Source: an uncultured Acidimicrobiales bacterium | GTDB lineage: Bacteria; Actinomycetota; Acidimicrobiia; Acidimicrobiales; SHLQ01 | DNA length: 64,000 nt | Reading direction: 5' to 3' | Assembly: GCA_964390555.1 (NCBI GenBank) | Contig: CAYMJU010000086.1 | Location: 7,661 to 71,660 of the forward strand | Shown: positions 5,124 through 55,604 of the stretch, piece after piece | Layout: each line of letters begins with the position of its first letter | Numbering within the stretch: the first letter of the stretch is position 1 | Notes under the pieces: generated by a model | Told to the model about the DNA's origin: nothing | Databases searched by the model: none | The model's input: only the letters and a program-made list of their open reading frames with translations | Program-made: the position numbers and the translations under genes

Positions 5124-6050
5124 ATGGGATATCTGGATGGCAAGGTCGTCGTCGTCACGGGCGGGGGGCGTGGGATCGGGCGGGCCACTGCGCTGGCCGC
5201 GGGTGCCGAAGGTGCGCAGGTGGTCGTCGCCGACTACGGCGGGGCCGTCGATCGCCGCGCCGGTGCGTCACCCGATGCGGCGCAGGCCGTGGTCGCCGAG
5301 ATCGTCGCCGCCGGCGGGCGAGCCACCGCTGCTGGCGAGGACGTATCGAGCCTCGACGGTTGCCGGCGGATCATCGCCACCGCCGTCGACGGCTACGGAC
5401 GGCTCGACGGGATCGCCTGCTTCGCCGGCATCACGGTCACGAAGTACCTGTGGGAGCTCGACGAGAGCGACTGGGACGACGTGATCGGCGTGCACCTCAA
5501 GGGGCACTTCGGCTGTGCCCAGGCTGCGGCCCGACAGATGATGGAGCAGGGGAGCGGCAGCCTGGTCTTCATCGGGAGCGGCGCCATGAACGGCACCCCC
5601 AACATGCCGAGCTACGCGACCGCCAAGGCCGGGATCCTCGGGCTGACGTGGAGCACCGCGTACGCCCTCGAGCGGTTCGGCATCCGCACCAACTGCGTGG
5701 TCCCCAGCGCCGCAACCCGCATGTCCGACAGCATCTACGGCAACGCCGAGATGCTTTCGGATCAGGTGGGGGAGACGATCCGGAGCGACCTGGCTGCAGG
5801 TACCTACCGCGATCCCGCCAACATCGCACCGCTCGTGCTCTATCTGTTCGGCGACAAGTCCGTGGGCATCAACGGTCAGGTGTTTCGCGCCCAGGGTTAC
5901 GACGTGGCCCGGCTCGGCGGTCTGGCGTGGGACAAGACGATGTCGAACGATGGTCCGTGGGACCTCGCGTCCCTCTCCGTGCGGTTGCCCCAGGAGCTCG
6001 GACCGACGCTCACGCCGCGGCCCGTTCCCTGGCCGGAACGGCCACGATGA
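5124..6050 (+). CDS. Short-chain dehydrogenase/reductase
   Basis: SD GGAGG lies 6 nt upstream of ATG 5124. Motifs: VVVVTGGGRGIGRAT and YATAKAG (YxxxK). Confidence 0.85.
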   Translation: MGYLDGKVVVVTGGGRGIGRATALAAGAEGAQVVVADYGGAVDRRAGASPDAAQAVVAEIVAAGGRATAAGEDVSSLDGCRRIIATAVDGYGRLDGIACFAGITVTKYLWELDESDWDDVIGVHLKGHFGCAQAAARQMMEQGSGSLVFIGSGAMNGTPNMPSYATAKAGILGLTWSTAYALERFGIRTNCVVPSAATRMSDSIYGNAEMLSDQVGETIRSDLAAGTYRDPANIAPLVLYLFGDKSVGINGQVFRAQGYDVARLGGLAWDKTMSNDGPWDLASLSVRLPQELGPTLTPRPVPWPERPR

Positions 6051-6080
6051 CTGGCGCCGGAACGGCCGCGATGACTGGCC
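6033..6080. repeat. 24-bp tandem duplication spanning the SDR stop codon
   Basis: CCGGAACGGCCACGATGACTGGCG (6033-6056) is followed by CCGGAACGGCCGCGATGACTGGCC (6057-6080). 22/24 positions are identical. The SDR TGA (6048-6050) lies in copy 1. Confidence 0.8.
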
Positions 6081-6162
6081 GGCGCGTCATGGCGCCCGAT
6101 TGCGGCCCGGCGCCCAAGCTGACAGTCTGCTGTCGCATTGTCGAAGGCTCGGGGGTACGCCC

Positions 6163-10542: not shown

Positions 10543-10570
10543 CTTGGGGGTTTGGTGTCGCAGGCCGAGG

Positions 10571-10654
10571 CTACGAGCGAAGCGAGCGCAGCCGAAGGAG
10601 CGCAGCTCCTCGGATGCAGATGGGGTCTGGTGGCGCAGCCCCCAGCGACAGATG
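10571..10654 (+). repeat. Double-hairpin interspersed repeat, copy A (shortened, no ATG)
   Basis: CTACGAGCGAAGCGAGCGCAGCCGAAGGAGCGCAGCTCCTCGGATGCAGATGGGGTCTGGTGGCGCAGCCCCCAGCGACAGATG aligns with the copies at 29498, 32364 and 36287. Confidence 0.75.
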
Positions 10655-11589
10655 CCGGCGTTCTCGACGAGCCGGGCCTCACCGTCGCGGTGCCCGTAGG
10701 CCTGTTGGACACGAGCCAGTCGTTCCGGGTCGGTGGATTGTGCGCCGAGCAGGTCGACCGCCTGGTCGCGCTCGGCGGAGCGTGGCCCCCGATCGTGATC
10801 GAACCGGGCCGACGGCGCGTCATCGACGGAGCGCACCGGGTCGCCGCGGCCCGCCGGCTCGGTTATAGCCATGTCCAGGCCGAGCTCTTCCACGGCTCGC
10901 CCGACGAGGCGTTCGTCGAGTTCGTTCGCCGCAACGTGACCCAGGGGCTCGTGCTCTCGTTGGCCGAGCGCAAGCACGCCGCGGTTCGCATACTGCGCAC
11001 GAGCCCGATCTGGTCGGACCGAAGGATCGCCGAGTTGTGCGTCGTGTCCCCGAAGACGGTGGCGCGGCTGCGGTCGGGGGACGGCTCGTGCCCAAGTGAG
11101 GACGCGGCCCACTCCGACGACGAGCGTCGTGTTGGCCGCGACCTCCGGGTTCGGCCGGTGCGACGAGGATCGGTGCGGGCGCTGGTGATCGAAGCGGTAC
11201 GGGCGCAGCCGAAGGCGTCGTTGCGCACCATCGCCGCGTCGGTCGGTGTGTCCCCGGAGACCGTGCGCCTGGTCCGGCGGAACCTTGCGCCCGGCGGGTC
11301 CTTGGTGGACGCCGGGTGCGACCTCGATCCTGCCCCGAGCGTCGACGACGGCTCGCCGACCGACACCGTGACCCCATGGCACTGCGATGCCGCGCTGGCC
11401 TCCAGCGAGCGCGGCGAGGAATTCACCCGGTGGTTCGAGAGCACCCATGTCGACGACACCGACCTGAGCTGGGTCGACGCGGTCCCCTTGGGCCGCGTCT
11501 ACGTGGTCGCCGAGGTCGCTCGCCAGCGGTCCGAGATCTGGCTGCGGATCGCCCGGGCCCTCGAGGCCCGTCCGGCGCGAGCGCGGTGA
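10630..11589 (+). CDS. ParB/sulfiredoxin-domain transcriptional regulator (StrR-like)
   Basis: ParB N-terminal domain pattern: AWPPIVIEPGRRRVIDGAHRVAAARRLGYSHVQAELF. Two HTH-like segments follow: SDRRIAELCVVSPKTVARLR and SLRTIAASVGVSPETVRLVRRNL. The start is uncertain. In-frame candidates are GTG 10630, GTG 10555 and TTG 10552. The ORF-track start at 10393 overlaps TetR-1 and was rejected. Confidence 0.65.
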   Translation: MAQPPATDAGVLDEPGLTVAVPVGLLDTSQSFRVGGLCAEQVDRLVALGGAWPPIVIEPGRRRVIDGAHRVAAARRLGYSHVQAELFHGSPDEAFVEFVRRNVTQGLVLSLAERKHAAVRILRTSPIWSDRRIAELCVVSPKTVARLRSGDGSCPSEDAAHSDDERRVGRDLRVRPVRRGSVRALVIEAVRAQPKASLRTIAASVGVSPETVRLVRRNLAPGGSLVDAGCDLDPAPSVDDGSPTDTVTPWHCDAALASSERGEEFTRWFESTHVDDTDLSWVDAVPLGRVYVVAEVARQRSEIWLRIARALEARPARAR

Positions 11590-29463: not shown

Positions 29464-29495
29464 CTGCATCCCACCCCAGGTGGGGTAGGATGCAG
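29464..29495. terminator. Stem-loop downstream of the SDR gene
   Basis: CTGCATCCCACCCC-AGGT-GGGGTAGGATGCAG forms 13 of 14 bp. It lies 23 nt after the stop and has no T-tract. Its 3' arm contains TAGGA, the only SD-like sequence for the repeat mini-ORF. Confidence 0.35.
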
Positions 29496-29497
29496 CC

Positions 29498-29594
29498 TAT
29501 GAGCGAAGCGCAGCGAGCGAGTGCAGCCGAGGGAGCGCAGCTCCCCGGTTGCCGATGGGGTCTGGGGGCGCGTAGCCCCCAGCGACGACGATGA
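29498..29594 (+). repeat. Double-hairpin interspersed repeat, copy B (with a 31-codon mini-ORF)
   Basis: TATGAGCGAAGCGCAGCGAGCGAGTGCAGCCGAGGGAGCGCAGCTCCCCGGTTGCCGATGGGGTCTGGGGGCGCGTAGCCCCCAGCGACGACGATGA. ATG 29499 is in frame with TGA 29592-29594. Confidence 0.8.
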
Positions 29595-29902
29595 AGGACG
29601 TCCACGAGAAGGCTGTGCTCAACCGGCTGAAGACCGCGCGGGGCCACTTGGATGCGGTGATCCGCATGGTCGAGGCCGACGCGTACTGCCCCGACCTGAT
29701 GAAGCAGCTCGCGGCGGTACAGGGCTCGTTGGAACGGGCCAGCCGGATCGTCTTGCGCAATCACCTCGAGACGTGTGTCGCCGCTGCGATGGCGGCGGGT
29801 CGCACCGACGAGATCGTCGAGGAGCTGATGGACGCCCTGCGCTATGACCGCACCGTCACCGCGCCCGGTCCCGAGTTGCACCTGACCGAGCAGGGGGGGT
29901 GA
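29591..29902 (+). CDS. csoR: CsoR-family copper-sensing repressor
   Basis: The Cys-His-Cys fingerprint has CsoR spacing: YCPDL..(25 aa)..NHLETC. The product is 103 aa, sits directly upstream of a Cu-ATPase, and overlaps it. Confidence 0.9.
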
Positions 29903-32088
29903 TGACCGCGACGATGCCTGCGGCGCCTGCCGGGGCGGAGTTCTCGGTGTCGGGGATGACGTGTGGGTCGTGCGCGGCCCGGGTGGAGAACGAGCTCGCC
30001 CGCCAGCCGGGGGTGACCCATGCCTCGGTGAATCTGGCGTCGGCGAAGGCCGTCGTCGTATTCCAACCCGGCGAGATCACGCCGGAGGAGCTGGTCGCTG
30101 CGGTCGGCCGGATCGGCTACGGGCTGGGGCCGGTCGAGGCATCGGCCGCGGACGACGGGGTGGACAGCGAGCAGGTCGCGCGGCGGTTGTGGCTGCGCCG
30201 GGTGCTGGTGGCGGGGCCGCTCGGGCTCGCGGTGCTGGCGCTGTCGCTCGGCTACATGCACGATCCGTGGGCCCGGTGGAGCGCCCTCGCGCTTGCGATT
30301 CCGGTGCAGTTCTGGGCGGGGTGGCCGTTCTTGCACCAGGCGGCGGTCCGGGCCCGGGCCCGCCAGGCGAACATGGACACCCTGATCTCGATGGGCACTT
30401 TGGCGGCGTTCGTGTTCTCCGCCTACCAGGTCGTGTTCGGTCCCGAGCACTCCGATCACTACTTCGACACCGCCGCGCTGATCGTGGCGTTCCTGGTGCT
30501 GGGTCGTTACTTCGAGGCGCGTGCCAAGGGCAAAGCGTCGAGCGCGATCCGCAGGCTGCTCGAGTTGGGTGCCAAGGAGGCCCGCCTGGTAGTCGACGGC
30601 GCCGAACGCATGGTCGCGATCGACACGGTGCGCGTGGGCGACGAGGTGCGGGTGCGGCCGGGGGAGAAGATACCCGTCGACGGGGTCGTGGTCGACGGGG
30701 CGTCGGCGGTGGACGAATCGATGTTGACCGGTGAATCGGTCCCGGTCGACAAGGGCCCCGGGGATCGGGTGGCCGGCGCGACGATCAACGCCCAAGGTGT
30801 GCTGACGATGCGGGCCACGGCGGTGGGCGCCGACACCGCCTTGGCGCAGATCGTTCGTCTGGTCGACGAGGCGCAGGGCACCAAGGCGCCGGTTCAGCGC
30901 CTCGCCGATCGGATCTCGGGCGTCTTCGTGCCGGCCGTACTGGTCGTCGCGGCCGTCACCTTCGCCGGGTGGGCGCTGGCCGATGACCTCACGAGCGGCC
31001 TGGTGGCCGCGGTCGCGGTGCTGATCATCGCGTGCCCGTGCGCTCTCGGATTGGCGACGCCGACCGCGATCATGGTCGGCACCGGTCGGGGTGCGGCGCT
31101 GGGTGTGCTGATCAAGGGCGGCGAGGTGCTGGAGCGCTCGAAGCGGGTCGACACGGTCGTGTTCGACAAGACCGGCACCCTCACCAAGGGTCAGATGGCG
31201 CTGACCGACGTCGTGCCCGCCGACGGTGTCGATCCCGGCGAGTTGTTGGCTCGGGCGGCGGCGGTCGAAGCCGGGTCCGAGCACCCCGTCGGTCGGGCGC
31301 TCGTCGATGGCGCCCACCACCGCGGTGTCGATGTCGCGCCGGTCACCGAGTTCGCGGCGGTGACCGGGCACGGTGTGCGCGCCCGCCTCGACGGAATTCT
31401 GGTTCACGTCGGTCGGCGTAAGTTGATGACCGACTCGGGCCTGATGAGTTGTACCGAGGTCGACGCCGCCGCGATGCGTCTGGAGGCCGAGGGTAAGACG
31501 GCGATCATGGCCGGCTGGGACGGCCGGGTCCGTGGCGTGTTAGCAGTCGCCGACACGCTCAAGGACGACGCCGCTGGGGCCGTCGCCCGCTTGCGGGAGA
31601 TGGGGATCGACGTGGTGATGATCACCGGCGACAACCGCCGCACCGCCGAGTCGATCGCCGCTCAGGTCGGCATCGATCGGGTCCTGGCCGAGGTGCTGCC
31701 CGAGGACAAGGTGGGCGAGGTCCGCCGTCTCCAAGCCCAAGGCTTGGTCGTGGCCATGGTGGGAGACGGCGTCAACGACGCCCCGGCTCTGGTTCAGGCC
31801 GACCTCGGCATCGCCATCGGCACCGGTACCGACGTCGCCATCGAGTCCTCCGACATCACGCTCCTGTCGGCCAACCTCGACGGCGTCGCCACCGCGATCC
31901 GCCTGTCTCGCCGGACCTTTCGCACCATCGTCCAGAACCTCGGCTGGGCGTTCGCGTACAACGTCGTGCTCATCCCGGTCGCCGCGCTCGGCTTGCTCGA
32001 CCCGATCCTGGCCGGCGCGGCCATGGCGTTCTCGAGCGTGTCGGTCGTGACCAACAGCCTGCGCCTCCATCGGTTCAGGCCCGGATGA
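29899..32088 (+). CDS. copA: Copper-translocating P1B-type ATPase
   Basis: N-terminal HMA motif [16 protein letters not shown], transmembrane CPC ([13 protein letters not shown]), DKTGTLT and GDGVNDAP. The start is GTG 29899 or ATG 29902. Confidence 0.95.
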
Positions 32089-32363
32089 GCTGCCGAACCG
32101 CTCGATCTCAGCGGTGGCGGAACTTCTGCACCGTTCCCCGCCGACAAACCGAGCAAGGCCGGGTTCGTGTACGGGCCGGCGAACGCCGCGCTGAACCGGC
32201 TGACGGTCGGCGCGTCGAAGAACTCGTGGACGGGACAGCCCGACGATCTCCAACGCTTTATCGCCGCCTGGAGGCGAACCTGGCTGCGCAGGGATGGCCC
32301 GATGCCTTTACCATCGGGCGCGTCCACAGCCCGCGCCCGTGACACAGATCCGAAAGGAGGGGG

Positions 32364-32457
32364 CATGAGAAGCGAAGCGACCGAATGCAGCCGAGGGAGC
32401 GCAGCTCCCCGGACGCCGATGGGGTCTGGGGGCTCGCGGCCCCGGCGACAACGATGA
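32364..32457 (+). repeat. Double-hairpin interspersed repeat, copy C (mini-ORF with a canonical SD)
   Basis: AAAGGAGGGGGC-ATG(32365)...CGATGA(32457). The body GCAGCCGAGGGAGCGCAGCTCCCCGGACGCCGATGGGGTCTGGGGGCTCGCGGCCCCGGCGACAACGATG aligns with copies A, B and D. Confidence 0.8.
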
Positions 32458-33515
32458 TCGATCGGGAGTCGCTGGCCGCGGCACTGAGGCCCGCGTCAGA
32501 GCCACGGATCATCGACGGGGTATACACCGAGGACCAGTTCGAGTCGTTGCTCGGCGTGGTGAAGGAGCACGGGCCCTGGCCGACCATCACCGCCCACCAC
32601 TTCCAGTCAGTCGAGGAGCTCATCGCCACCACGTCGGGTGTGGTTCCCAAAGGTCACGGACTGACCCTCGATGCCATGGCGACGGCCAACTTCCGAGGGT
32701 TCTACGCCGCGAACTCGTGTTGCTACTACCCAGAGATCCACGACTGCTTCTTCAACGCCGGGTTCATCGAACGGGTCAAGGACTACTGGGGGGCGAAGTA
32801 CGCCAAGCCGACGCTGATGCTGTTCAACATCTGTGGCCCGCACAACAGCGGCCTCAGTCCGCACCTCGACGCGGTGACCTTTCGCGGCGTGAGGATCGAG
32901 AACACCCCGGTGTGGATGCAGAACGTGATGGGGAAGTCGGGGTTGTTCCGCGACTACATCGTGAAGATGGCCCAGGTCATCACCTGGTTCTGGTTGGGCG
33001 AGGAGGGCACGTTCACCTACTGGCCCGACGGGCCGCTCGGTGCGCCGCGCCGTATCGAGCACCCGATGTGGAACAAGGGGGTCGTCGTTCAGAACGAGCT
33101 GATGTTCCACCGTGGCGATCCGGTCGGTCGCCCCGACGAGCGGGCCGTACCCGGGCTCGCGAATCGCTCGAGGATCGGGTACCGCGCCTCCACCGACGAT
33201 TGGGCGGTCTCGACCGATGGCGAGGTGATGCGGACCTACGAGCCCGGCAACGTCCGCTTCTTGGTGCACTGGAATGCCGAGGTGTACGCCGACCTGGACG
33301 AGGCGAAGCTGGTGATGGACCACACCGACGATCTGACCCATGATCGGGTCGTGGCCACGTTGCTCGCCGACATGCGGGCCAAGGGCGTCAAGGTCGCGGA
33401 GCCGAGCGACCCGTTCCACGACGACGACTTCATCCACGCGCTGATCTCGACGTACACGATCGCCCCGACCCAGGACTGGGTCCAGCGCACCGACGGCGTG
33501 CGTCGTTCGTCCTGA
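32454..33515 (+). CDS. Hypothetical protein (possible non-heme-iron oxygenase fold, speculative)
   Basis: Strongly GC-rich third positions over 353 codons. ATG 32454 overlaps the mini-ORF stop. I recognise no family. It contains SPHLDAV (HxD) and a later MFHRGD. The alternative start ATG 32385 lies inside the repeat. Confidence 0.65.
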   Translation: MIDRESLAAALRPASEPRIIDGVYTEDQFESLLGVVKEHGPWPTITAHHFQSVEELIATTSGVVPKGHGLTLDAMATANFRGFYAANSCCYYPEIHDCFFNAGFIERVKDYWGAKYAKPTLMLFNICGPHNSGLSPHLDAVTFRGVRIENTPVWMQNVMGKSGLFRDYIVKMAQVITWFWLGEEGTFTYWPDGPLGAPRRIEHPMWNKGVVVQNELMFHRGDPVGRPDERAVPGLANRSRIGYRASTDDWAVSTDGEVMRTYEPGNVRFLVHWNAEVYADLDEAKLVMDHTDDLTHDRVVATLLADMRAKGVKVAEPSDPFHDDDFIHALISTYTIAPTQDWVQRTDGVRRSS

Positions 33516-35194: not shown

Positions 35195-36724
35195 GTGGGC
35201 ACGATCACCATCTCGGGCCCGACCGGCGAGGACGCCCGGCTCGCGGCGTGGGTCGAACGGGAGCTCGGCGGCCGGGTCACCCGGATCGCACGGCTACCTC
35301 GGTGGCGCCCGGCGTGGGACATCGACGTCGAGGTGAGCGGAGAGGTGGTGCCGCTTCACGCCCGAGGGGAGAGGGAGCCGACGATCCTCATGCCCTTCCG
35401 GATCGCCGACGAGGTACCCGTTCATCACCTGCTCGAAGCGCACGGCGTGCCCGTTCCCCACGCCTACGGGCTCTGTGACGATCCCCATGCCCTGGTGATG
35501 GACCGGCTGTCCGGGAACGTCGATCTGTCCTTTGCCGCCGACGACGCCGAACGGGATCAGCTGACCGGCGACTACCTCGAGCACTTGGCCCGCGTCTACG
35601 ACATCCCGATTTCAGCGGCGGTGGCCGCCGGGTTCGAGATGCCCGCCGACGATGCCGGGACCGCCCTGGGCTACTTCCGCAGGATCGAAGCCGACTACGA
35701 CCCGTTGATGGAGGGACAGCCGGTCGATCCGATCGCCCTGTTCTTCCGTCGCTGGTTGGCCGGCAACGTCCCGGTCGGCCGGCGCGCGTCGGCCCGGTTC
35801 ATCCTCTACGACGCGTTCCAATTCATGTTCGCCGAAGGTCGCGTCACCGGTCTGCTCGATTTCGAGACGGCCCACATCGCCGACCCGATGATGGACCTCG
35901 CCGCGCTCCGGGTCCGCGACACCATCAAGAGCATGGGCGATCTCGAAGCCCTGGTCGCCCGCTACGAAGCGGTCACCGGAATCCCGGTCGACCACGACGT
36001 GATCGAGTACCACAGCGTCTTGTACAACGTGTTGTCGGTGATCCCGACCGGGCCGTCGCTTGCCGTGCCGACCAGGGGTGTCGACTGGCTCACGTATCTG
36101 GCGTGGTACACCAACGGCGCCCGGTGGGCGTTCGAGTGCATAGCCGAGATGCGGGGCTTCCAGCTCGACCCCGTCGAGATCCCCGAGCCGCGGCCCACCC
36201 GACGGGCCCCCGCGTACCGCCATCTAGTCGACAGCTTGCGCGCCGCTTCCTCTCCTGGGAGCGAGGCCCCCAGCGACAACTATGAGGGAGCGCAGCGACC
36301 GAGTGGCAGCCGAGGGAGCGAAGCGACCCGGATGCCGATCGGGTCTGGGGGCGCAGCCCCCAGCGACAACTATGAGCGGTTGAGTGCGGGCAAGCTGGCC
36401 AACCACCTGCGGCGCGTCGACGAGGTCGGGCCGGCGTTCGATGCCGCCGATCTCGACGACCTGGCCGGTGTCCTCGGGTATCGCCCCGATCGGGCCGAGG
36501 CCGAGGCCGAGCTGGTCGAGTTGGTGGCCAATGCCGGCCCCGAGCGCGAGGAAGAGCTCGTGCGGCTTCTCGACGCCCGAGCGCAGCGGATGCACTACAC
36601 GCTGGCGTCGTCGACGTCGCTGCTGGTGCGCCACCCGCGGCTTCGCAGCCTGCGTTCGGGCCGGTCGAGCGCCCGGGGAGCCGACGAGAGCTGGCCCGCC
36701 GGCGCCATCCCCGGCACGGCCTGA
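35195..36724 (+). CDS. APH/choline-kinase-like phosphotransferase family protein with an in-frame repeat insertion and a C-terminal extension
   Basis: GTG 35195 directly follows the upstream TGA. Kinase-fold C-lobe: GLLDFETAHIADPMMDLAALR. The catalytic-loop position reads ILYDAFQFMF rather than HGDxxxxN. At 509 aa it is longer than its two paralogs here (344 and 370 aa). Confidence 0.75.
   Translation: MGTITISGPTGEDARLAAWVERELGGRVTRIARLPRWRPAWDIDVEVSGEVVPLHARGEREPTILMPFRIADEVPVHHLLEAHGVPVPHAYGLCDDPHALVMDRLSGNVDLSFAADDAERDQLTGDYLEHLARVYDIPISAAVAAGFEMPADDAGTALGYFRRIEADYDPLMEGQPVDPIALFFRRWLAGNVPVGRRASARFILYDAFQFMFAEGRVTGLLDFETAHIADPMMDLAALRVRDTIKSMGDLEALVARYEAVTGIPVDHDVIEYHSVLYNVLSVIPTGPSLAVPTRGVDWLTYLAWYTNGARWAFECIAEMRGFQLDPVEIPEPRPTRRAPAYRHLVDSLRAASSPGSEAPSDNYEGAQRPSGSRGSEATRMPIGSGGAAPSDNYERLSAGKLANHLRRVDEVGPAFDAADLDDLAGVLGYRPDRAEAEAELVELVANAGPEREEELVRLLDARAQRMHYTLASSTSLLVRHPRLRSLRSGRSSARGADESWPAGAIPGTA
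36267..36376 (+). repeat. Double-hairpin interspersed repeat, copy D (90-bp unit plus duplicated 20-bp end, in-frame in a CDS)
   Basis: CCCCCAGCGACAACTATGAG occurs at 36267-36286 and again at 36357-36376 (period 90 bp, or 30 codons). The body GGAGCGCAGCGACCGAGTGGCAGCCGAGGGAGCGAAGCGACCCGGATGCCGATCGGGTCTGGGGGCGCAG aligns with copies A-C. Confidence 0.8.
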
Positions 36725-43667: not shown

Positions 43668-45337
43668 CCGTCTGGCCCGCGTCCCCGGTGGTCGACGCCG
43701 GCGCCGCCTTGCCGTCGACGTTGCCCGAGCTGTTGGCGGCTCGGGCGGCCGAGCGGTGCGACCACCCGCTGCTGATCTGCGACGACGAGGTCCTCACGTT
43801 CGCCGAGACCGAGCGCCGGTCGGCGGTCCTCGCCCGGGGGTTGCTGGCCGCCGGCGCCGGGAAGGGAACCCACATCGGCTTGTTCTTCCCGAACGGCGCC
43901 GATTTCGTCGTCGCGGCGATGGCGGTCGCCCGAATCGGCGCGGTCGTCTTGCCGCTGTCGACGCTTTCCACCGCAGCGGAGCTCCGGACCTTGCTGCGCA
44001 GCGCCGACATCGAGATCCTCATCGCCTCGGCGACCTATCGTGGCAAGGACCACGTCGCGCTGATCCACGAAGCGCTGATTCACGAAGCGCTGATTCACGA
44101 CGCGGTCGATGGTCTCGGCCTCGACGTGGCGCCGCCCCTGTATCTTCCGGCGGTGCCGGCGTTGCGTCGGGTGGTGGTCGACTCGCCCGCCCCAGGCATC
44201 GGCACCGCGTCGACGGTGGAGGCACTGATCGCCGAGGGCGAGTCGGTAGAACTCGCGGTGCTGGCCGCCGCCGAGGCCCTGGTGCGACCCGGCGACCGGT
44301 TGGTCATCGTGCACACGTCGGGTTCGACGAGTGCACCGAAAGGCGTGATCCACCAGCACGGGCCGCTGATCCGCCACCAGGACAACCTCAACGCCCTCCG
44401 CGGCTACCAGCGGCACGAGATCCTGTTCTCGAACTCCCCGTTTTTCTGGATCGGCGGGTTCGCGTACAGCCTGCTCGCCACGCTGGTGGCTGGCGCCACG
44501 CTGGTGTGTTCGAACGCTACCGATCCCTCGGGCACGCTGGACGTCCTCGAACGGGTCCGGCCCACGATGGTCAACGGGTTCGCCCAGAGCGTCGCTCACC
44601 TCGGCGCCCACCCTTCGTTCCCCGGGCGCGATCTCTCGTCGATCCGTCGGGGAAACCTGTGGCCGATCATGCCGCCAGATGTCCGGGCCGCCGATCCGGA
44701 ACTTCGGCACAACCTGTTCGGCATGACCGAGACGGGAAGCGTGTGCCTGGCCAGCGACGACGAGTCCGACCAGCCCGAGCATCGGCGGGGTTCGTTCGGC
44801 AAGCCCGTGCCGGGGTTCACCGCCCGCGTCGTCGACACCGACTCGGGCGCCGAATGTGTCACCGGCGAGGTGGGGGAGCTGTGGCTTCGAGGCCCGTTCC
44901 TGATGGAGGGCTACTACGGCCGGGAACGTCACGAGACCTTCGAGCGCGACGGCTGGTACCGCACCGGAGACCTCTTCCACGTCGATCCCGAGGGGTTCTT
45001 CTACTTCACCGGCCGTCGAGGCGACATGATCAAGACCGCGGGCGCGAACGTTTCGCCTCGCGAGGTCGAGGGCGCGATCGCGGACCTGACCGGCCTCGTG
45101 GCCCACGTCGTCGGCGTCGACGACGCGGCGAGGGGCCAGATCGTGGCGGCGGCCGTGCGGGTACCCGCGGGCCAGGCCGGACCCGAGCTCGACGAGCTGC
45201 GTCGCGCCCTGCGGACTCGGCTCTCGGCGTACAAGGTGCCCCAGCGAATCCTCGTCCTGGCCGACGCCGACGTGCCGATGCTGTCGAGCGGCAAACTCGA
45301 CGCCCGGGCGTTGAAGGAGCTCTTCGGTGCCCTTTGA
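43664..45337 (+). CDS. Acyl-CoA synthetase (AMP-dependent ligase)
   Basis: GTG 43664 overlaps the upstream TGA (GTGA). AMP motif: IVHTSGSTSAPKGVIH. C-terminal GWYRTGDLFHVDPEGFFYFTGRRGDMIK. Confidence 0.9.
   Translation: MTVWPASPVVDAGAALPSTLPELLAARAAERCDHPLLICDDEVLTFAETERRSAVLARGLLAAGAGKGTHIGLFFPNGADFVVAAMAVARIGAVVLPLSTLSTAAELRTLLRSADIEILIASATYRGKDHVALIHEALIHEALIHDAVDGLGLDVAPPLYLPAVPALRRVVVDSPAPGIGTASTVEALIAEGESVELAVLAAAEALVRPGDRLVIVHTSGSTSAPKGVIHQHGPLIRHQDNLNALRGYQRHEILFSNSPFFWIGGFAYSLLATLVAGATLVCSNATDPSGTLDVLERVRPTMVNGFAQSVAHLGAHPSFPGRDLSSIRRGNLWPIMPPDVRAADPELRHNLFGMTETGSVCLASDDESDQPEHRRGSFGKPVPGFTARVVDTDSGAECVTGEVGELWLRGPFLMEGYYGRERHETFERDGWYRTGDLFHVDPEGFFYFTGRRGDMIKTAGANVSPREVEGAIADLTGLVAHVVGVDDAARGQIVAAAVRVPAGQAGPELDELRRALRTRLSAYKVPQRILVLADADVPMLSSGKLDARALKELFGAL
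44057..44101 (+). repeat. In-frame 15-bp x3 tandem repeat in the acyl-CoA synthetase gene
   Basis: GCGCTGATCCACGAA / GCGCTGATTCACGAA / GCGCTGATTCACGAC encodes ALIHE-ALIHE-ALIHD. Confidence 0.9.
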
Positions 45338-48217: not shown

Positions 48218-49411
48218 ATGAACGTGTTGCCCATCGACGCCGACCACCACTACTACGAATCGCTCGACGCCTTCACCCGGCACATGCCCAGGGAGTTCGC
48301 CCGCCGCGGCGTGCGGGTCGTCCGCGACGGCAAGCGGGTGGAAGTGGTGATGGGCGACAAGGTGAACCGGTTCATCCCCAACCCGACCTTCGATCCCATC
48401 ATCGTGGCCGGCTGCCTGGACCTGTTCTTCCGGGGTCAGATCCCCGACGGGATCGATCCTCGGACGGTCCAGCAGGTCGAGCCTCTTGACCGGCACCCCG
48501 AATACCAGGATCGTGACGCGCGGCTGAGGGTCATCGAGGAACAGGGCCTCGGCGCGGTGTTCTTGTTCCCGACGCTCGGATGTGGAGTGGAGCAGGCGCT
48601 TCGATTCGATGCCGAGGCCACGATGGTGAGCCTTCACGCCTTCAACCTGTGGCTCGAGGAGGCCTGGGGCTTCGACTACGGGGGACGGCTGATCGCGGCA
48701 CCGATGCTCTCGCTCGCCGATCCTGCGGCGGCGGTGGCCGAGGTCGACTCGCTGCTCGATCGGGGGGCGCAGATGGTCCACGTCCGTCCAGCTCCCGTCC
48801 CGACCGGAGATGGCGGGGGCCGATCGCTCGGGCACAAGGACCACGACGCGGTGTGGGCGCGCTTGGCCGAGGCCGGCGTCCCGGTGGCCTTTCACCTCGG
48901 CGACAGCGGGTACGAGGGGGTGCTGGCCTCCGCGTGGGGTGCCCACGGCACCTTCGAGGGGTACGGCAAGCTCGATCTGCTCACCAAGATCACGGTGTCG
49001 GACCGGGCGATCCACGACACCGTGGCGTCGTTGATCGTCGATGGCGCGTTCGCCCGCAACCCGGGGCTCAAGGTGGCGAGCATCGAGAACGGCTCGGATT
49101 GGGTGAAGCTGCTCGTCAAGCGGCTGCGAAAGCAGATGAACCAGACGCCCTGGGCGTTCAAGGGTGACCCGATCGAGCAGCTCCGCCAGAACGTGTGGGT
49201 CACGCCGTACTACGAGGAGGACATCGTCGCCCTAACCGAGGTTCTCGGTGCCAACCGGGTGCTGTTCGGCTCCGACTGGCCCCACGGGGAGGGACTGGCG
49301 ACGCCGCTCGACTTCGTGAACGAGCTCGACGGGCTCGACGACGACACCAAGGCGCTCATCATGCGCGACAACGCGCTCGAGTTGCTCGGCCGAGTGTCGG
49401 TGGTGGTCTGA
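48218..49411 (+). CDS. Amidohydrolase-2 (ACMSD-like TIM-barrel metal hydrolase/decarboxylase) family
   Basis: N-terminal IDADHHYYE (HxH-type metal motif). C-terminal VLFGSDWPHGEG. Confidence 0.8.
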   Translation: MNVLPIDADHHYYESLDAFTRHMPREFARRGVRVVRDGKRVEVVMGDKVNRFIPNPTFDPIIVAGCLDLFFRGQIPDGIDPRTVQQVEPLDRHPEYQDRDARLRVIEEQGLGAVFLFPTLGCGVEQALRFDAEATMVSLHAFNLWLEEAWGFDYGGRLIAAPMLSLADPAAAVAEVDSLLDRGAQMVHVRPAPVPTGDGGGRSLGHKDHDAVWARLAEAGVPVAFHLGDSGYEGVLASAWGAHGTFEGYGKLDLLTKITVSDRAIHDTVASLIVDGAFARNPGLKVASIENGSDWVKLLVKRLRKQMNQTPWAFKGDPIEQLRQNVWVTPYYEEDIVALTEVLGANRVLFGSDWPHGEGLATPLDFVNELDGLDDDTKALIMRDNALELLGRVSVVV

Positions 49412-54636: not shown

Positions 54637-55604
54637 TCGTCGACACCGACGAGCAGATCCATGCCGCTGACCCCAAGGTGTGGTCGTGGAGCGAGTCGTG
54701 GTTCTTCTCGTTCATCGATCTCGATGGTGGCCCGGCACTGGTGTTCCGGGTGGGCGTCGTGCCCAACCAGCGTCGAGCCATGCTGTGGGCCTTCGTCCAC
54801 GTCGACGGCGAGTGGCTTGCGGTCGAGGAGTCCCGGCTTCACGCCGACGATCTGCGCACCGAGCGGGGCATCGCCTATGACCGGTGGGCGCTTCAGTTCG
54901 CCTGGGAGCCGACAGAGGCGCTGAAGGCGTCACGGTTCAGCTTCTCCGGATCGTGCCTGGCCCGTTCTGGCCCCCGGGCGGGAGCCGTCGTGCCGGTCTC
55001 GATCGACGTCTCGACCACAGCGACGGCATCGCTCCTTGTCACCGGCACCGGCGAGGCCGGTGGGGTCACCGGTACCGGCGAGGCCGGTGGGGCCGCCGAG
55101 TACCCGACGAACCGGTTCGAGCAATCCGTCCAGGTGGTCGGGTCGGTGGTCATCGACGGCGTTTGCCACGAGGTGCGGGGCGGCGGGCACCGCGACAAGT
55201 CGTGGGGCCCTCGGGACTGGCGGGTGGCGTTCACCATCGGCGACCTTCAGGGCGACGACCGCCAGCTCTACTTCGTGGGCCGCCGACCTGGTCAGGGGTC
55301 GGGGTATGTGCGGGCCGGCACCGACGAGCTCCAGGTGATGCGTTGGGTCGGCGGAGAAGTCGGCTTCGACGATGCCAACCGCACGATCACCGGTGCCCGA
55401 CTCGAGCTCGCCGCGGGCGACACTCGGATCGAGGCGACGCTCAAGCCCATCGGACCCAGCATCTGTTTCGATATGGCGCACACGTGCCCCGAGCCCGAAC
55501 ACTGGCTCTACTACCGGGCCCTGGTCGAGGCTCGGGTCACGGGCTGGAGCGAGCCGGTGCGGGGTTGGTTCGAGACGAGTCGTTACGGTGAGGAGCAGCG
55601 CTGA
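54633..55604 (+). CDS. Conserved hypothetical protein (tentatively CrtC/AttH-like beta-barrel)
   Basis: ATG 54633 overlaps the upstream TGA (ATGA), and its stop shares 1 nt with the next ATG. WSWSESWFFSFIDLDGG and GGHRDKSWGPRDW resemble DH-x-WG motifs of that superfamily. The family call is low confidence. Confidence 0.65.
   Translation: MIVDTDEQIHAADPKVWSWSESWFFSFIDLDGGPALVFRVGVVPNQRRAMLWAFVHVDGEWLAVEESRLHADDLRTERGIAYDRWALQFAWEPTEALKASRFSFSGSCLARSGPRAGAVVPVSIDVSTTATASLLVTGTGEAGGVTGTGEAGGAAEYPTNRFEQSVQVVGSVVIDGVCHEVRGGGHRDKSWGPRDWRVAFTIGDLQGDDRQLYFVGRRPGQGSGYVRAGTDELQVMRWVGGEVGFDDANRTITGARLELAAGDTRIEATLKPIGPSICFDMAHTCPEPEHWLYYRALVEARVTGWSEPVRGWFETSRYGEEQR
55037..55090 (+). repeat. In-frame 27-bp x2 tandem duplication
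   Basis: GTCACCGGCACCGGCGAGGCCGGTGGG / GTCACCGGTACCGGCGAGGCCGGTGGG (26/27 identical) encodes VTGTGEAGG twice. Confidence 0.9.

Follow-up and report, generated by a model that had tools for sequence, protein, structure and literature searches.

Mycobacterial interspersed repetitive units (MIRUs), which are used for tuberculosis typing, are the classic repeats that insert at start codons and keep the gene expressed via a coupled mini-ORF. We know of no account, since 1997, of how MIRUs move. According to two sources (PMC12548453, PMC3184786), the ORF of a MIRU ends in a TGA overlapping the restored start codon, with a −4 spacing and tetranucleotide direct repeats, and PMC12548453 explains this arrangement by coupling, with reference to Supply et al. 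1997. The description in PMC6286618 limits MIRUs to mycobacteria. REP/REPIN sequences are extragenic, often occur as inverted pairs, make no target duplication and are mobilised by RAYT (PMC3184786). The small mobile RU/ERIC sequences of enterobacteria carry ORFs, are occasionally intragenic and are MITE-like with terminal inverted repeats (PMC2759123).

The repeat analysed here occurs in a stretch of 64 kb of DNA, in the following called the window (the whole stretch that was analysed). It acts in the manner of a MIRU without being one. With a probability of roughly 70% we regard it as belonging to an undescribed, MIRU-like family of non-autonomous mobile repeats that works in the way of MIRUs and spares the host by inserting at gene junctions or in frame.

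The repeat family in the window and its two hairpins

A profile built from the four copies given in the original prediction recovered exactly four full copies in the window, all on the plus strand and with E-values of 1e-23 to 1e-25, which bears out the predicted recurrence of a sequence of about 90–96 bp at four places. These are copy A (10563–10655; nhmmer E = 1.4e-23), copy B (29498–29595; E = 1.6e-25), copy C (32363–32459; E = 6.8e-25) and copy D (36285–36377; E = 2.5e-24). A fifth, partial copy at 36255–36286 (+; profile search, E = 0.008) had been overlooked. It comprises the 3′ third of the unit (a hairpin-2-like part and the tail), lies directly 5′ of copy D and forms about 1.3 tandem units together with it. 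A broader family profile gave no additional copies in the window. The 26-nt core of the repeat (up to 3 mismatches) and a 34-nt degenerate core each had four matches in the window versus 0.00 expected from shuffled sequences. The G+C content is 66–72% across the entire window, and its gene calls are based on third-position G+C, Pfam and homologues.

When copies A to D are aligned, the mean column identity is 76% and a long invariant core is seen. The unit has about 85–95 nt, with periods of 82–99 nt among the copies, and is built from a GAGCG(A/C)AGCG-rich head, hairpin 1, the sequence GATG, hairpin 2 and a short tail. It is essentially free of stop codons in all six frames. In copy B, hairpin 1 lies at 29523–29552 (+; GCAGCCG-GGGAGC-GCA-GCTCCC-CGGTTGC) and hairpin 2 at 29562–29582 (+; CTGGGGGC-GCGTA-GCCCCCAG). 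Two GC-rich stem-loops had been predicted for every copy. Hairpin 2 (CTGGGGGC/GCCCCCAG) is indeed present in all window copies, with one mismatch in copy A and a remodelled stem in copy C, while only copies A, B and C have hairpin 1 with an intact inner stem as quoted (GGGAGC/GCTCCC); in copy D, the outer stem has been retained together with an apical GC-GAA-GC mini-hairpin. Folding of each copy, as the original prediction had suggested, showed that copies B, C and D fold better than their shuffles (z = −2.6 to −3.4 as RNA), and copy A does not. For copy B the z-score is −2.8 as RNA and −2.6 as DNA.

The structure of hairpin 1 is supported by compensatory changes, which were found in seven of ten pairs among 17 family members, with 97.6% of the cells paired and one pair occurring as GC, CG, AU and UA. 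The covariation score is 0.28 compared to 0.079 in shuffles (none of 500 reaches the observed value) and drops to 0.04 or less when the partner strand is slid. Hairpin 2 is near-invariant in the family, with the form GGGGTCTGGGGGC-GCA-GCCCCCAG. Its invariance in the metagenome set is an ascertainment artefact, since hairpin 2 was the search pattern; in the independently found copies A, B, C, L002b and L003 it varies slightly. Both hairpins are capped by a C-GNA-G triloop, which is replaced by GCCA in one subfamily. We take C-GNA-G triloop hairpins to be of the hyperstable single-stranded DNA mini-hairpin type, as in d(GCGAAGC). These conserved, covarying hairpins and their triloops suggest that it may be in the form of folded, single-stranded DNA that the element is recognised; the covariation table contains three G-U cells only, and DNA and RNA as the folded species are inseparable by these data.

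The inner part of hairpin 1 occurs in two versions that differ by a two-base TC/GA change, namely the perfect palindrome GAGC-GCA-GCTC (copies A to C) and the direct-repeat form GAGC-GCA-GCGA (copy D, L002, L003). The same switch is seen among the metagenome copies (L024 and L061 versus the others). Its presence in both subfamilies suggests that it may have arisen by quasi-palindrome template switching.

Some other features of the window were recorded. On the minus strand, positions 48290–48387 match the Mycobacterium sRNA Ms_AS-1 in Rfam with 50.1 bits (gathering score 37, E = 1.3e-6). The match runs antisense to an Amidohydro_2 gene, in the 5′ part of the latter, and shares positions with a 21-nt tandem repeat (48297–48339). 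Other tandem repeats with periods of 27, 15 and 24 nt are located at 55038–55116, 44057–44104 and 6029–6082, respectively, have 2–3 copies and are unrelated to the repeat family.

Copies at start codons and copies within genes

Copy B precedes csoR (29591–29902, +; Pfam Trns_repr_metal, E = 2.9e-25). Its mini-ORF (29499–29594, +) consists of 31 codons plus TGA and has a period of 92 nt from ATG to ATG, i.e. 2 mod 3. The TGA at 29592–29594 overlaps the csoR ATG at 29591 in the sequence ATGA; both the coordinates and the overlap are exactly as predicted. Hairpin 2 ends 8 nt before the csoR ATG, and these 8 nt (CGACGACG) contain no Shine-Dalgarno-like purine run, in agreement with the claim that csoR lacks a Shine-Dalgarno sequence of its own. 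A near-perfect palindrome with 15-nt arms (CTGCATCCCACCCCA-GG-TGGGGTAGGATGCAG, 29464–29495, 93% complementary) stops 3 nt upstream of the mini-ORF ATG. By comparison with CsoR operators, this palindrome is probably the CsoR operator. Copy B would then have entered the space that separates the operator from the coding sequence of csoR. Neither a sigma-70-like promoter nor a terminator consensus was seen at copy B.

The ATGA mini-ORF had been ascribed to copy B, where it stands, but the same design at copy C had been missed. The mini-ORF of copy C (32365–32457, +) has 30 codons plus TGA and a period of 89 nt (2 mod 3), and its TGA at 32455–32457 overlaps the ATG at 32454 of the next gene in another ATGA. 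This gene (32454–33515, +) encodes 353 amino acids without a Pfam match. Copy C sits at its start codon; the homologues have 355 amino acids and begin at the equivalent methionine. The strong native Shine-Dalgarno sequence (AAAGGAGG, 32353–32360, +) now serves the mini-ORF. In a relative (L128, GCA_009886115.1; protein 83% identical) the site is empty and reads ...GGAGGACCTTCGATGACG... (also given as ...GGAGGACCTTCGATGACGCTCATCGAT...); there, GGAGG stands 7 nt before the ATGA, and the ATG of the gene overlaps the stop codon of an SDR gene that precedes it. In the database, the model P0121 (376 aa) begins at ATG 32385 inside copy C, and its start is probably 23 codons too early.

Upstream of copy C, an 85-codon ORF in 32085–32342 overlaps the copA stop codon (ATGA). 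Over its last 42 residues (32217–32342) it shares 62% identity with the C-terminus of the SDR gene directly upstream of the orthologue of the 353-aa gene in L128, and judging from this identity it is a truncated SDR remnant. The position of the remnant between copA and copy C indicates that csoR-copA was acquired by or rearranged into this site, and that the right edge of the acquired DNA is not at the repeat. A csoR-copA composite transposon bounded by the direct copies B and C was rejected, because the ancestral SDR remnant separates copA from copy C.

Copies A and D lie within coding sequences. Copy A adds about 27–30 codons in frame after codon 5 (MSQAE) of a ParB-like/HTH gene (10555–11589, +), with a period of about 90 nt (0 mod 3). 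The corresponding segment ATSEASAAEGAQLLGCRWGLVAQPPATDAG is missing from all nine of the nine aligned homologues (302–333 aa), which have the MSQAE start in common, and the database model P0241 (344 aa) includes the repeat-encoded residues. Copy D is found in a gene for an APH-family phosphotransferase (35195–36724, +), the product of which has 509 amino acids compared to mostly 465–480 in the full-length homologues listed. It forms a single 33-residue insertion in a poorly conserved, variable linker, is absent from 11 of 11 aligned homologues and has a unit period of 90 nt (0 mod 3); here, too, the database model (P0001) includes residues encoded by the repeat. The flank of copy D shows a 13-nt exact identity (CGACAACTATGAG) within a 20-nt identity (CCCCCAGCGACAACTATGAG), but the partial copy next to it implies that some of the apparent duplication near copy D is tandem-unit material.

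According to this, the original prediction, which had placed all copies on the plus strand, between cistrons and in the orientation of the downstream gene, is right about the strand throughout and about the intercistronic placement for copies B and C, whereas copies A and D are located in frame inside genes whose homologues lack the insert, not upstream of genes. Since copies B and C lie at start codons and copies A and D in frame inside genes, all four leave the host gene readable, by two routes. The translations of the copies do differ, as expected from the view that the peptide is irrelevant because the frames differ between copies. Copies A and D resemble the Rickettsia palindromic elements (RPEs), small palindromic repeats that lie in frame in protein-coding genes and extend tolerant regions of the product by a peptide segment. 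RPEs differ from the present family in being larger, AT-rich, known only from Rickettsia and not known to be tied to start-codon/ATGA coupling.

Relatives, reading frames and flanking duplications

The named homologues of the window proteins come from Acidimicrobiia or Acidimicrobiales MAGs. A window-type core pattern had matches in only one of 185,579 reference species, again an Acidimicrobiales MAG; this pattern is specific to the window subfamily, and its absence elsewhere is weak evidence. The MAG carries three copies, two in L002 and one in L003. While the strict core pattern had no match in the JGI metagenomes, the 23-nt hairpin 2 alone was found in more than 120 metagenome contigs, and about 14 full-length relatives were identified on 10 distinct metagenome loci (L044 and L086 are the same locus), each scoring above 50 bits with the family profile. 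Across all sequence scanned there were 21 full-length family matches, four of them in the 64-kb window. About 17 related copies exist outside the window, in the MAG and on metagenome contigs. Most copies share the orientation of the adjacent gene (12–13 co-oriented versus two antisense copies), at least two of the relatives being antisense. Tandem units occur in L015 (three) and L051 (two) as well as at copy D. About 75 kb of four related loci (L124–L126, L128) contain no copy. Together with the single reference species, this indicates that the family is patchy and lineage-specific.

The repeat interrupts short-read assemblies of the same organism. Logan contigs from SRR9952630 with identical genes start within hairpin 2 of copy B (L001, positions 1–26) and break off where copy D begins (L127, 3′ end), which is what a repeat with several copies in the sample would cause.

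The periods of the copies depend on where the repeat is inserted. All six copies at start codons have periods of 2 mod 3 (B 92, C 89, L002a 95, L002b 89, L024 98 and L044 92 nt), for which the probability is (1/3)^6 or about 0.0014 if the frame were random, while the three in-frame copies (A about 90, D 90 and L077 99 nt) have periods of 0 mod 3; this frame rule covers nine copies, the context of which was classed by eye. Copies directly after stop codons (L003, 82 nt; L056, 90 nt) follow no frame rule. With a period of 2 mod 3, an ORF that begins at the first start codon runs in frame into the TGA contained in the second ATGA, GTGA or TGATG. Indeed, ATGA-type mini-ORFs were read from the sequences of further relatives, namely both copies of L002, L024 (GTGA) and L044. 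The repeat in L044 is antisense to its genes, yet an ATGA-to-ATGA mini-ORF is present on the gene strand, which is possible since practically no stop codon occurs in any of the six frames of the unit.

The repeat inserts at or beside TGA-containing sites (ATGA, GTGA, TGATG, CTGAGCG), typically junctions between gene stops and starts, and insertion duplicates 4–13 nt of the local flank. A flank duplication of at least 8 nt was found for 12 of 18 copies versus 12% of cross-locus controls. The flank that is repeated 5′ of the head and 3′ of the tail is TCAGGAGTGAGCG in L024, ACCGATGAGCG and TGATGGGAGCG in L002, TGGCGTGAGC in L077, GACTGAGCG in L003, TTCGGCTGA in L056 and CGGTCATG in L044. The left part of these duplications differs by locus and therefore stems from the target, whereas their right part invariably reads TGA or TGAGCG. 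In copies B and C, ATGA alone is duplicated, and this ATGA could belong to the element instead of the target. The duplications at solo copies range from 4 to 13 nt, a spread that no single known transposition chemistry predicts.

Hairpin 2 was also found elsewhere. The exact 23-mer GGGTCTGGGGGCGCAGCCCCCAG (e.g. 29558–29582) is present in the more than 120 metagenome contigs (L004–L123) in at least five unrelated contexts. Besides the repeat family of the window these include a REPIN-like inverted-pair element (TCAGCCCGTCCGGCGTTTGAGGAC...) on about 70 contigs of 71% GC, Olavius-metagenome contigs of 41–45% GC that carry two further similar hairpins, tRNA-adjacent GAGCGAGC arrays, and DGR loci. 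In eight contigs (including L065, L098, L009 and L046) the hairpin lies about 75–100 nt after the stop codon of an FGE/CLec-type gene (...FGFRCVRGL) and just before a gene for an Avd-like four-helix protein (MAESDNIL...), a position that separates the target gene of a diversity-generating retroelement from its avd. IMG/VR contains two occurrences of the 23-mer. In plasmid and phage collections only a weak 43-nt match in two Stutzerimonas megaplasmids was seen, and none in phages. In one of these megaplasmids (NZ_CP076684.1; L129 1501–1543) the match is a compressed double-hairpin look-alike, GGGAGCGCAGCTCC..GAGGGTCTGGGGCGAGTAGCCCCAGG, which is intergenic near parA and 84% identical over 43 nt (E = 2e-3, possibly by chance). 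Either convergence towards a highly stable hairpin or a mobile module common to these contexts could account for the sharing of the 23-mer.

Comparison with known elements and possible modes of movement

Several properties are common to the repeat and to MIRUs. The unit falls within 40–100 bp and is dispersed in several copies, and filled sites show tetranucleotide direct repeats where relatives have empty sites. For copies B, C, L002a, L002b, L024 and L044 the likeness extends to the start-codon site, the overlap of the ORFs and the −4 (ATGA) spacing. The predominant co-orientation with genes and the GC-rich internal dyads also agree with what is described for MIRUs (PMC12548453, PMC3184786, PMC4128351), the occasional tandem units may be a counterpart of the tandem arrays of MIRUs, and the short words CGACGACGATG and AGCGCAGCGA are shared. 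On the other hand, copies A and D are intragenic and in frame, flank duplications reach 13 nt, hairpin 1 covaries next to a near-invariant hairpin 2, some copies are antisense to their flanking genes, and the host is Acidimicrobiia-like, not Mycobacterium. A comparison with MIRU motifs A and B and the MIRU292 unit (sequences from PMC6286618 and PMC7977185) gave a best z of 2.1, corresponding to p of about 0.05, uncorrected for 24 comparisons (dinucleotide shuffles). With the similarity at chance level, no homology to MIRUs can be demonstrated; on this count and by its host, which is not Mycobacterium, the repeat falls outside the MIRUs. The MIRU-like architecture that had been proposed is thus retained for copies B and C but not for A and D, nor with respect to sequence similarity or host.

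In Rfam no copy had a match at the gathering threshold (best sub-threshold hit radC, 13.8 bits versus 40), and the literature yielded neither MIRU-like elements outside mycobacteria nor a description of the hairpin sequence. The family, which had not been recognised in the original prediction either, is therefore apparently undescribed. No transposase, RT or HUH/RAYT domain was detected by Pfam among the approximately 45 ORFs of the window, which are metabolic or regulatory. Terminal inverted repeats were not found, only internal hairpins. This absence, together with the variable duplications (4–13 nt), led us to reject a MITE, notwithstanding that RU/ERIC sequences are likewise small repeats with open frames that sometimes lie inside genes.

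As a non-autonomous MIRU-like element, the repeat would be seen today only where its insertion kept the host gene expressible. In an insertion at a start codon, the displaced native Shine-Dalgarno sequence and ATG would open a throw-away ORF of 30–31 codons through both hairpins. This ORF would stop at the TGA of the duplicated ATGA, where the terminating ribosome could re-initiate on the gene's own ATG. In copies B and C the translating ribosome would also melt hairpin 2; left folded, this hairpin 8 nt upstream would block a start codon without a Shine-Dalgarno sequence. Inside genes, only units with a length that is a multiple of 3 would persist, in variable segments of the protein. From this geometry we infer that translation of the host gene may be coupled via the mini-ORF, and, by analogy, the MIRU strategy appears to have been reached in a different actinobacterial class.

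The structural data could also be read in terms of a REP/REPIN-like or IS200/IS605-derived hairpin element that is moved in trans by an HUH transposase (RAYT/TnpA) recognising hairpin 2 and a 5′ GGGGT, with the ATGA mini-ORFs being accidental. Like REP/REPIN sequences, the repeat is short, GC-rich and hairpin-forming and probably recognised in single-stranded form; its two hairpins consist of GC stems with C-GNA-G triloops, presumably of the hyperstable single-stranded DNA type, hairpin 1 covaries, and the copies are biased in strand and orientation. Furthermore, the identical 23-nt hairpin 2 occurs in the REPIN-like metagenome family of inverted pairs, which is located between convergent genes on about 70 contigs of 71% GC. 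HUH transposition, however, makes no target duplication, and locus-specific flank duplications of 8–13 nt are present here. Inverted pairs are missing from the window, where all four copies are direct and two of the four intragenic, none of its approximately 45 genes encodes an HUH or RAYT domain, and the frame rule implies that the ORF geometry is under selection and not accidental. We consider such an HUH-driven element rather unlikely. Movement by reverse transcription, either target-primed or DGR-like and with the hairpin as DNA target or priming structure, would agree with the variable length of the flank duplications, a typical feature of target-primed reverse transcription, and with the identical hairpin 2 that eight metagenome contigs have between the gene for a DGR-type variable protein (...FGFRCVRGL) and an Avd-like gene. 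Nevertheless, the window holds no RT, and neither an A-tract nor a template repeat was seen; the identity of the hairpins may be convergence on a very stable stem-loop. RT-dependent insertion is highly improbable in our opinion.

Instead of a selfish insertion, the repeat could be a cis-regulatory RNA module that benefits the host (a translational coupler, an mRNA-stabilising or processing hairpin, or a leader-peptide attenuator) and was recruited to positions upstream of certain genes. The covarying, conserved structure, the co-orientation with genes, the position of copy B between a CsoR-operator-like palindrome and csoR, and the relatives L003 and L056 directly after stop codons are compatible with it. 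But the host genes are unrelated (ParB-like, csoR, a gene of no known function, APH), two copies lie inside coding sequence, orthologous sites in close relatives lack the repeat, and the peptides vary by copy, so that a recruited module appears very unlikely. Its variant as a leader-peptide or uORF attenuator fails, as the peptides differ by frame and the host genes are unrelated. A wider reading would make the repeat one branch of a cross-phylum superfamily of double hairpins, with a variable, covarying hairpin 1 and the constant hairpin 2 (GGGGTCTGGGGGC-GCA-GCCCCCAG), that share one undescribed single-stranded DNA or cDNA chemistry acting at TGA stop/start junctions and leaving duplications of variable length. 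The same superfamily would then take in the REPIN-like actinobacterial element, the arrays next to tRNAs and the hairpin that separates DGR target genes from avd. This we judge clearly unlikely; if true, its chemistry could also explain how MIRUs move.

With regard to the MIRU-like family proposed here, the frame rule and the covarying hairpin 1 are the most useful new facts, and the occurrence of hairpin 2 across families is the main loose end. Three database protein models (P0121, P0241 and P0001) carry residues encoded by the repeat. The frame rule, 2 mod 3 at start codons and 0 mod 3 inside genes, is testable genome-wide, and the conserved, covarying hairpins are handles for finding the mobilising enzyme. 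The same geometry with unrelated sequence in a deep-branching actinobacterial class would mean that the MIRU strategy is a general one that either evolved by convergence or is of very great age.
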